A stretch of DNA of 64,000 nt from positions 800,001 to 864,000 of the forward strand of contig OZ250186.1 in NCBI GenBank assembly GCA_965238275.1. Reading direction: 5' to 3'. The stretch is from Nitrosopumilus sp. (GTDB lineage Archaea > Thermoproteota > Nitrososphaeria > Nitrososphaerales > Nitrosopumilaceae). Each line of letters opens with the position of its first letter. Positions within the stretch are counted from its first letter, which is position 1. Shown here in pieces: positions 27,315 through 28,604 of the stretch. Both the position numbers and the translations under genes were made by a program. The notes under the pieces are model-generated. The model worked only from the letters and a program-made list of their open reading frames with translations. It made no database searches and had not been told where the DNA came from.

Positions 27315-28604
27315 ACGCCATGTGTTGCCGTTGTAACGGTGATCATGGCATTTACCCTGTTGGACCTGAGAGTCGACACGAACTTGCCACTTATGATGGC
27401 GTGCGAAAGAGTGACTCAAGGTATGCGGATGGTCAAATACCGCTTTGACGGTGAATGGGAGTTTTCCGCTGGTCGGGTCCGATATGCTGCAAAGGAGGTG
27501 ATAGCACGTATTACATTGGAATAGACGTTCACAAAAAGAAATGCGTTTCAACCATCAAGGGCAAAACCAACAAGATACTAAGGCAGGCTGAATTTGACAA
27601 TAATGTCCGGGGAATAACCGAATTCGTCAAGATGATCCGCAAGGAAGGATACGTGCCGGCTACGGCCGTCTGCGAATCCACGGCCAACTACTGGATAGTC
27701 GTGCACGACATGCTCGAGGATGTCGGCATCAACACCCTGCTGGCCCACCCACACAACACGAAGATCATAACCGAAACCGTCTACAAAAACGACAAGGCAG
27801 ACTCGGCAAAGCTGGCAGACCTGTGCAGGCTGGACATGATCCCGGAGTCGTTCGTGGCCGACAAGCCCGCGCGGGACCTGCGCGAACTGACCCGCACCCG
27901 CCTGGGCATGAAGATGTACGCCACCGCCCCAAAGAACCGCATCCACGCGATCCTGGCCAAATACCCGCACGAGCAGCCCAAGGGAGGACTTTACGGGACC
28001 TGGACTCGAGTGGCTGCAGGCCGTGCCCCTGAGGGAGGTTGACCGCATGGCGGTGCAGTCGCATCTGGCCACCATCGATACCGTACTAAAGCAGGTGGCA
28101 AAATTTGAAAAAAAGGTAGCCGGGATTGCAATGAGCGACAGGAGGGCACAGCTGATCATGACCATACCCGGAATAGGCTACGTTACGGCAGTAACCATAC
28201 TTGCCGAAATAGTCGACCACAGCAGGTTTGCTGACGCCGAAAAGATGGCCTCATACGCCGGCCTGGTGCCAAAACACCACAACAGCGGGGAGACCGTCAG
28301 GACCGGCGGCATCACAAAACGCGGCTCCGTCTGGCTGCGCCGCGCCATGGTCGAGGCCGCGTTAGTTGCCGTCCAGCACGATGTCCGGATAGGGGCGCGC
28401 TACCAAAGACTGGCAACCCGCATAGGACCCATGAAGGCAAGGGTCGCCGTGGCCAGGCAGATGCTCGAATGGGTCTGGGAGATGCTTGAGCACAGCACCG
28501 AGTACAGGACCCAGGACAGGGATCTTGTAAGACGAAAATTCCAGAGAATAAAACGCATTGCCGACACACAACATCAACGGGTTTGGATGCCCGTAACACA
28601 TGGG
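27315..28604 (+). mobile_element. IS110-family element
   Basis: 2-bp core AG at both junctions (27313-27314, 28605-28606). Subterminal IRs CCATGTGTT (27318-27326) / AACACATGG (28595-28603). Encodes a DEDD/Ser recombinase. Confidence 0.88.
27317..27482 (+). ncRNA. Putative IS110 bridge RNA
   Basis: 5' hairpin 27317-27349. Closing stem 27360-27369/27473-27482 encloses two stem/internal-loop/hairpin arms whose loops match the element junctions. Confidence 0.8.

Follow-up and report, generated by a model that had tools for sequence, protein, structure and literature searches.

The leader of a decayed IS110-family element in Nitrosopumilus very probably encodes a bridge RNA (seekRNA)

RNA guidance has been shown experimentally in both the IS110 and the IS1111 subgroups of the IS110 family (PMC11208160, PMC11187229; parts of these two papers and of PMC11208158 are drawn on here). 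In the bridge RNA of IS621, it is on the left side that the 5′ guides (the left target guide, LTG, at 50-58 and the left donor guide, LDG, at 123-130) pair, with the bottom strand, and on the right side that the 3′ guides (the right target guide, RTG, at 77-80 and the right donor guide, RDG) pair, with the top strand. The IS621 core is CT, and its top strand is cut first (PMC11208160, PMC11208158). The seekRNAs of the IS1111 type carry the complement of the top strand first, which is the reverse of the order in the IS110-type element ISEc21 (PMC11187229). Bridge RNAs were predicted for 85.7% of the IS110 and 93.0% of the IS1111 elements in ISfinder, in a study whose database included archaeal genomes (PMC11208160). 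Additionally, a catalogue lists 662 archaeal IS110 recombinases (preprint 10.1101/2024.06.21.599552), and 86 covariance models, with 32,190 bridge RNAs, have been reported from bacterial and archaeal intergenic regions, many of them deviating from the IS621 structure (10.64898/2026.10.21.760802). Here, we analysed a 64,000-nt stretch of the Nitrosopumilus sp. contig OZ250186.1 (positions 800,001 to 864,000, hereafter the window, in which position 1 is the first letter), and we conclude from sequence comparison that the leader of the element at 27315-28604 very probably encodes the bridge RNA (seekRNA) of a decayed IS110-family element of Nitrosopumilaceae. This identity is proposed because loops of the leader match the flanks and ends of the element, and because its stems and guides covary across 43 homologous leaders.

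The element is a decayed copy of 1290 bp, delimited by empty sites and by other copies, and its two ORF pieces match Pfam domains; it and all features described below are on the plus strand. It lies 19 bases inside the left end of an insertion sequence (IS) that carries tnpB. The left half of the target (27296-27314) consists of the first 19 bases of the TnpB IS and ends in the left AG core (27313-14), and the right AG core (28605-06) is followed by the rest of the TnpB-IS left end and by tnpB itself (28659-30179; PF07282 and PF01385), the whole right part covering 28605-30179. These boundaries were assigned because the empty sites read straight through: in at least 15 uninterrupted TnpB-IS left ends of the same genome, the sequence of 27296-27314 is joined directly to that from 28607 onward, with a single AG. 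A 26-mer representing the empty site has 11 exact occurrences elsewhere in the genome, or 16 if up to one mismatch is allowed, and this 2.2-Mb genome contains more than 20 repeats of the segment 28605-28700. DNA runs cover the entire element and also display the empty-site form. With one AG in the empty target and one at each end of the inserted element, AG behaves as the core dinucleotide of an IS110-family element does.

The same ends recur in related elements. A search of the window's own genome identified three other long copies (c2, c3 and c4) and four leader fragments. Among the related loci, left ends were located in 40 and right ends in 29. All 40 left ends are preceded by AG (the regular expression permitted [AT][AG]), and all 29 right ends, as well as that of the window, read ATGGG followed by AG (the search motif itself required ATGGGAG); the right side of c4 reads GA instead of AG. 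Short subterminal inverted repeats, which had been proposed from the window alone, are indeed present: an exact repeat search gave 9 bp at 27318-27326 with its partner at 28595-28603, which right-end comparison places one base before the end of the element at 28604. Of 30 elements, 27 have exact inverted repeats of at least 6 bp, compared with a mean of 4.5 and a maximum of 9 in the shuffled control; in most relatives the subterminal repeats measure 7-13 bp, and their sequence differs between subfamilies. In the same genome, the TnpB that comes after c2 shares 89% identity with that of the window and the one after c3 shares 43.5%, and c4 sits in another repeat, the start of which resembles the same TnpB left-end motif. 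Only the lineage of this genome occupies TnpB left ends; relatives elsewhere have unrelated flanks. The TnpB IS itself is a TnpB-only (IS1341-like) multicopy element, the conserved left end of which begins CTATAGTGAAAAG, and two of its copies hold the IS110 element.

Within the leader, four guides can be read from two loops. In the first, target-binding loop, the 5′ strand (target guide 1, 27377-27384) is complementary to the top strand of the core and right flank over 8 of 8 bases, CACGAACT at 27377-84 being the reverse complement of AGTTCGTG at 28605-12. The 3′ strand of this loop (target guide 2, 27403-27411) is identical to the left flank and core over 7 of 7 bases, with GCGAAAG at both 27403-09 and 27308-14, and is followed by two handshake-like bases (27410-11). 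In the second, donor-binding loop, the 5′ strand (donor guide 1, 27429-27434) is paired to the top strand at element bases 2-7 (27316-21), an assignment drawn from covariation in the family, and the 3′ strand (donor guide 2, 27455-27463) carries ATGGGAG at 27455-61, identical to the right end ATGGG plus AG at 28600-06, and then TT. The preliminary description of this locus, made from the letters alone, had proposed a bridge RNA with these loop-flank and loop-end matches, and every string was found where it had been placed.

The two target guides track the flanks across the family. Each guide-flank pair was scored as the longest string common to guide and flank, and the flanks were permuted 2000 times. 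For the left flank, the mean score was 6.26, compared with 3.18 ± 0.17 after permutation, and none of the 2000 permutations reached the observed value (39 non-redundant elements of 43). Identity over at least 7 bases was found for the left guide in 26 of the 39 non-redundant elements and in 14 of 1460 cross pairings. For the right flank, the mean was 5.06 versus 3.16 ± 0.19, and again 0 of 2000 permutations reached it (31 of 32 elements). The same variation is visible inside the window's own genome, where the 3′ strand of loop 1 varies with the left flank: the window copy and c2 have one version, c3 and the leader fragment L007 a second and c4 a third. Because these sister copies with changed guides occupy variant left ends, the guides have been reprogrammed naturally. 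Target guide 2 is followed by two bases that copy the start of the element, as the handshake guides of IS621 do; in 28 of 39 elements, the second of them is the same as element base 2.

The donor guides were compared in the same way with the ends of the element. In four relatives whose left ends differ, donor guide 1 is in each case exactly complementary over its six bases, and several relatives pair at 6 of 6 positions. Over 18 distinct combinations of guide and end, the mean was 4.89 of 6 Watson-Crick pairs, compared with 3.54 ± 0.22 in permuted combinations (0 of 5000 reached the observed value). The preliminary description had cautioned that this fourth guide matches the left end only in part; the match in the window is in fact imperfect, and the doubt about the guide itself is lifted by the covariation of ATGGTC with element bases 2-7 in relatives. 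Donor guide 2 is invariant in 43 of 43 leaders and matches the right end and core wherever the right end was found. The TT after it equals the first two bases of the right flank in the window; family-wide, the two positions agree in 14 and 13 of 31 elements, which is weak.

The guides are presented by a conserved fold. In the minimum free energy (MFE) structure of 27315-27495, the leader forms a 5′ hairpin (27317-27349), a closing stem (27360-27369 with 27473-27482) and two arms, as the preliminary description had drawn them, with additional pairs within the second loop. The target-binding arm (27370-27417) has an outer stem at 27370-75/27412-17 and an inner stem at 27385-89/27397-401; the donor-binding arm (27425-27469) has an outer stem at 27425-29/27465-69 and an inner stem at 27438-42/27449-53. 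Conservation of these pairs, which were taken from the window's fold, was examined in 43 leaders (39 distinct rows). The structure pairs 78.1% of cells, and both sides change in 27 of 45 pairs, compared with 7-13 pairs when the partners were slid by 1-3 columns. The outer stem of the target arm (helix 4) is 99.6% paired with compensatory switches (for example, CG in 20 and UA in 19 leaders at one pair), and such switches also occur in its inner stem (helix 5, 86.7% paired) and in the inner stem of the donor arm (helix 7, 97.4%). The outer stem of the donor arm (helix 6) is 92.3% paired and nearly invariant. Run blind on the same alignment, RNAalifold recovered the three covarying arm stems. 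Thus, the proposed identity is borne out by what such a proposal entails: stems kept by compensatory changes, a target loop that follows the flanks in the 43 leaders, a donor loop that matches the ends and a common core.

The RNA gene would extend from about 27358 to 27485, possibly from 27315. By analogy with IS621, ISEc11 and ISEc21, the recombinase would bind the leader RNA, and the RNA would pair simultaneously with the target and with the circle junction, in which the right end, AG and the left end are joined. Since it is the minus strand that the 3′ guides and their handshake-like bases pair with, strand exchange at the core would be expected to begin there. In relatives, the loop of the 5′ hairpin contains a TTATA(A/G)-like box, which reads TTGTAA here (27331-27336, element bases 17-22) and stands about 26 nt before the closing stem. 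This box could be an archaeal TATA box placing the RNA start at about 27359 (element base ~45). The 5′ hairpin may be either within the RNA, as in IS621, or a DNA-level promoter or end feature.

Several observations weigh against the assignment as a bridge RNA. With respect to structure, the MFE of -62.1 kcal/mol corresponds to a modest z-score of -2.0, and 7 of 200 shuffled sequences fold equally well or better; thermodynamics by itself is weak support, and the case rests on comparison. Only about 65% of the cells of the closing stem are paired, in part owing to a one-base misalignment of its 3′ side in some subfamilies. The two helices of the 5′ hairpin (helices 1-2) are 65% and 55% paired, with 12 of 14 pairs changing on both sides, in a region where the alignment of distant subfamilies is not structural. 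The closing stem, the 5′ hairpin and the outer donor stem were not predicted by RNAalifold on the same alignment, and an Rfam scan of 26500-30500 at E ≤ 10 gave only an unrelated match at chance level (E = 7.2). With respect to the guides, a right-flank match of at least 7 bases is present in only 9 of 31 elements, weaker than on the left, and in three loci (L033, L042 and L100) one or both flanks are unmatched, probably because of later rearrangement. Donor guide 1 of the window has 4 Watson-Crick pairs, one G-U pair and one mismatch, and donor guide 1 never pairs with the core. Since donor guide 2 and the right end are both invariant, they provide identity only, and no covariation is possible. 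Opposite the core, some subfamilies have AA in place of CT. The expression data have limits of their own: all four runs consist of contigs, which do not reveal RNA ends, strand or circle junctions, and the RNA-library contigs come from relatives of 88-95% identity and may include DNA. Finally, a search of the genome with Pfam models turned up no intact recombinase belonging to this subfamily, all four long copies being broken.

The state of the recombinase gene bears on whether the element is still active. Its N-terminal piece, at 27455-28042, contains the DEDD/RuvC-like domain (PF01548, E = 4.8e-19, 69.1 bits), and its C-terminal piece, at 28023-28643, contains the Tnp domain with GLVPKHHNSG (PF02371, E = 2.2e-28, 98.9 bits; aligned with c2 and c3). 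A 2-bp deletion between 27989 and 27990 splits the recombinase between these domains; it is common to the window copy and c2, and is evident as a gap in comparison with c3, c4 and the intact homologue P0001. The alignment of the four long copies also revealed a 321-bp loss unique to the window copy, with its scar at 28553-28564; the natural stop codon is gone with it, as is most of the 3′ non-coding region. The full-length sister c2 (G000:C1:2148253-2149863) measures 1611 bp versus 1290 bp. Because the deletion removed its end, the C-terminal frame continues into the TnpB element. Moreover, the Shine-Dalgarno-like GGAGGTGAT of the window is followed by ACG at 27506-08 (together 27494-27508), where relatives (for example, L031, L032, L034 and L038) start with ATG behind a perfect Shine-Dalgarno-like GGAGGTGA; the start-codon position is approximately 190 nt from the left end. 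The other two long copies are damaged as well, c3 by a 92-bp insertion and a 1-bp deletion and c4 by the absence of approximately 500 bp. With its frameshift, its 321-bp deletion and its missing ATG, the window copy apparently cannot act alone.

It is nevertheless conceivable that the element is alive, with two recombinase halves that cooperate or a copy that is moved in trans, and with the bridge RNA in current use. The frameshift is present in both the window copy and c2, although only 1 of 1290 bases distinguishes the two; the TnpB elements into which they are inserted have just 89.6% identity across 1700 bp. Because the near-identical copies share the frameshift and the hosts have diverged, the already frameshifted form reached a second site recently. 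The break falls between the two Pfam domains, and the guides still match the flanks perfectly. However, gene conversion between copies would look alike, no intact recombinase of the subfamily is available in the genome, and the window copy also lacks the 3′ region and the ATG. The only intact IS110-family open reading frame (ORF) of the genome, encoding 371 amino acids, is of a different subfamily, and the covariance model R1 described below has no match in its leader. A live element is thus an unlikely reading. The recent spread of the broken form may reflect mobilisation in trans, conversion or a split gene that still works. The intact ORF just mentioned is located at L108:1441-2556 (G000:C1:1923482-1924597), between two leader fragments of the family studied here, and its leader has a GGTGAATGGGG motif.

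A different objection accepts the matches and denies the RNA: the loops could be single-stranded DNA guides or protein-binding end sites, as in IS200/IS605. Compensatory changes in the stems would fit DNA hairpins equally well, and subterminal inverted repeats are present. Nevertheless, the protein is a DEDD recombinase of the IS110 family, for which RNA guidance was reported in both subgroups in the sections of PMC11208160 and PMC11187229 used here, and the two-arm layout, the core rule and the handshake-like bases mirror the solved IS621 RNA as presented in the corresponding part of PMC11208158. Contigs from RNA libraries favour the leader, which is weak evidence. In the metatranscriptome X19, contigs of relatives (88-95%) had a depth of ~95-103 over 27356-27563, of 14-17 over the hairpin and upstream flank and of 0-10 over the recombinase body, the leader thus being covered about 10 times as deeply as the gene body. 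Where X19 and X20 leave parts of the element uncovered, absence does not follow. This depth is compatible with abundant leader RNA and provides a weak hint of it. A DNA-level role of the loops therefore appears highly improbable beside an encoded bridge RNA. That the matches arose by chance in a leader that is merely a 5′ untranslated region has a negligible probability, for although the matches span only 6-8 bases each and the fold has a modest z-score, comparison refutes it: guides and flanks vary together in dozens of independent insertions, the observed values were reached by none of the permutations (0 of 2000 and 0 of 5000), and the slid-partner controls collapse.

Taking the leader as a bridge RNA gene, its layout can be set beside the described systems. 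The comparison with IS621 was made by the text of the papers and not by sequence, and it covers what the consulted parts of PMC11208160 and PMC11208158 describe. As in IS621, a DEDD recombinase has the RNA upstream of it, and this RNA consists of a 5′ hairpin, a target arm and then a donor arm; each loop has two guides on opposite strands that overlap a 2-nt core, which reads CT on the strand to which the 3′ guides pair; handshake-like bases follow the 3′ guides; and one donor guide is imperfect. Unlike IS621, whose 5′ guide pairs with the bottom strand on the left side (PMC11208158), the 5′ guide here pairs with the top strand on the right side. The guide order is thus mirrored relative to the gene, and therefore the core reads CT on the minus strand, in agreement with the earlier observation that the guides address the opposite strand. 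Further differences are the subterminal repeat (9 bp versus 2-3 bp), the archaeal host, and the position of the imperfect donor guide, which here is the 5′ one and stops short of the core.

Compared with the IS1111-type elements ISEc11, ISPa11 and ISKpn4, as far as they are characterised in the part of PMC11187229 used here, the family shares the complement of the top strand 5′ of the bottom-strand match, subterminal repeats within 7-17 bp and a GL-P----SG motif in the recombinase (not decisive). A repeated target at the end of another mobile element is likewise shared, as for IS4321/IS5075 with the inverted repeats of Tn21 (PMC11187229). In IS1111-type elements, the RNA is downstream of the recombinase gene (PMC11187229), whereas here it is upstream, and the 3′ non-coding region of 345-400 nt in full-length relatives of the present family has no guide-like matches. 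Section 6 of PMC11187229 names IS1111 relatives as exceptions, namely ISMtsp17 with an upstream non-coding region, and ISHvo10 and ISAcp5 with long regions at both ends; compared by description only, they have the same mixed layout as the present family. ISEc21 resembles the family in its upstream non-coding region, in a similar recombinase size (345-385 amino acid class) and in natural reprogramming among relatives, and differs in having the bottom-strand match first and no long subterminal repeats, according to the same part of that paper.

Of the traits of IS110 proper, then, the family has the upstream non-coding region, and it has neither the bottom-strand guide first nor absent or 2-3 bp repeats; of the IS1111 traits, it has repeats of 7-17 bp and the top-strand order, and not the downstream RNA gene. 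Of the traits of the IS110 family in the wide sense, the domain order, the two-loop RNA, covarying target guides, donor guides and a shared core are present. Guide order and subterminal repeats thus resemble the IS1111 type and the position of the RNA resembles the IS110 type. Protein similarity points to neither side: in a tblastn search against plasmids, IS4321 was matched at 21.9% identity (72 bits), no closer than other IS110-family matches, and the named plasmid matches IS4321, IS5075, ISEc45, IS5708 and IS1618 were all 22-27% identical, in a search without a labelled reference set. It is tempting, though rather doubtful, to regard the clade as a third organisational type of the IS110/IS1111 superfamily, with a 5′ RNA, opposite polarity, long repeats and a core-skipping donor guide, and to regard its lineage in this genome as a parasite of TnpB ISs that retunes its left guide to variants of their left ends and of which a split-gene copy spread recently. 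If this were true, the spread of the split copy would mean that the domains work as separate polypeptides or that an RNA-bearing shell is mobilised in trans.

The relatives on which these comparisons rest were found by a scan of one genome per species. It gave 79 loci, almost all of them in Nitrosopumilaceae and other metagenome-assembled genomes (MAGs) of Thaumarchaeota, and a few on contigs binned as sponge-associated bacteria. Intact homologues have 354-374 amino acids (for example, one of 374 amino acids with 93% identity), and the upstream regions of relatives can be aligned with the window leader. A DNA search with the leader in 40 relatives, 24 of them of the same genus, gave no match beyond this genome. 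The covariance model R1 (two arms, 128 positions, 27 pairs) was built from 34 of 39 distinct trimmed leaders, six sequences with a 36-nt insertion being left out. R1 matches 8 leaders of this genome and 12 more in other fetched loci; it found none in relatives of 30-37% identity, in the second IS110-family element of the genome or in 9 other sampled genomes of the same genus. Among 151 sampled genomes of the family, 21 had R1 matches; they represent 10 of 27 genera, and the highest copy number in a single genome is 17. One of these 21 genomes (G117) is unpublished. Four relatives with the same leader and 52-71% recombinase identity (L031, L032, L046 and L061) are on contigs binned as Dehalococcoidia and Poribacteria MAGs, which reflects either mis-binning in sponge metagenomes or inter-domain transfer.

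A literature search combining IS110 with thaumarchaeal names found nothing on bridge RNAs in this clade, supplements not being covered, and the family may already be included in published bridge-RNA sets. The known mechanism of these transposons is unchanged by the present family, which is a clean but ordinary example with a mixed IS110/IS1111 layout. If the bridge RNA is as proposed, it represents fully readable, natural RNA-guided recombination in mesophilic ammonia-oxidising archaea, in which dozens of independently retargeted copies allow four guides, core and ends to be read from genomes. For the engineering of bridge recombinases, the family offers compact orthologues, with elements of ~1.3-1.7 kb, an RNA core of 128 positions and intact natural copies in related genomes. 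The mixed layout could help explain evolution between the IS110 and IS1111 layouts, and the locus documents the specific colonisation of the end of one mobile element, the TnpB IS, by another.

Additional observations concern the 3′ part of the element. In full-length members of the long subfamily, the 3′ non-coding region is rich in G+C and 345-400 nt long, and in the short subfamily it measures ~50 nt; the window copy lost this region between 12-bp direct repeats. A search for a second guide RNA in the 3′ region of full-length relatives found no guide-like matches: the longest flank matches were 4-8 bases in ~350 nt (one of 10 bases, in L033), which is near chance as judged without a shuffled control. 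One low-depth DNA contig (X1) jumps from 28606 back to 28553 and could represent a tandem or a solo right end.

At the other end of the gene, ACG has replaced the start codon in this lineage, and therefore gene callers start its intact relatives at the in-frame ATG in the donor loop (27455; P0001); this annotated start adds 17 residues in the lineage's intact relatives. The 92-bp insertion in the recombinase coding region of c3 (G000:C1:504039-504124) has inverted-repeat ends and looks like a miniature mobile element. In another relative, the leader region is partly duplicated in tandem (L044:2740-3000).

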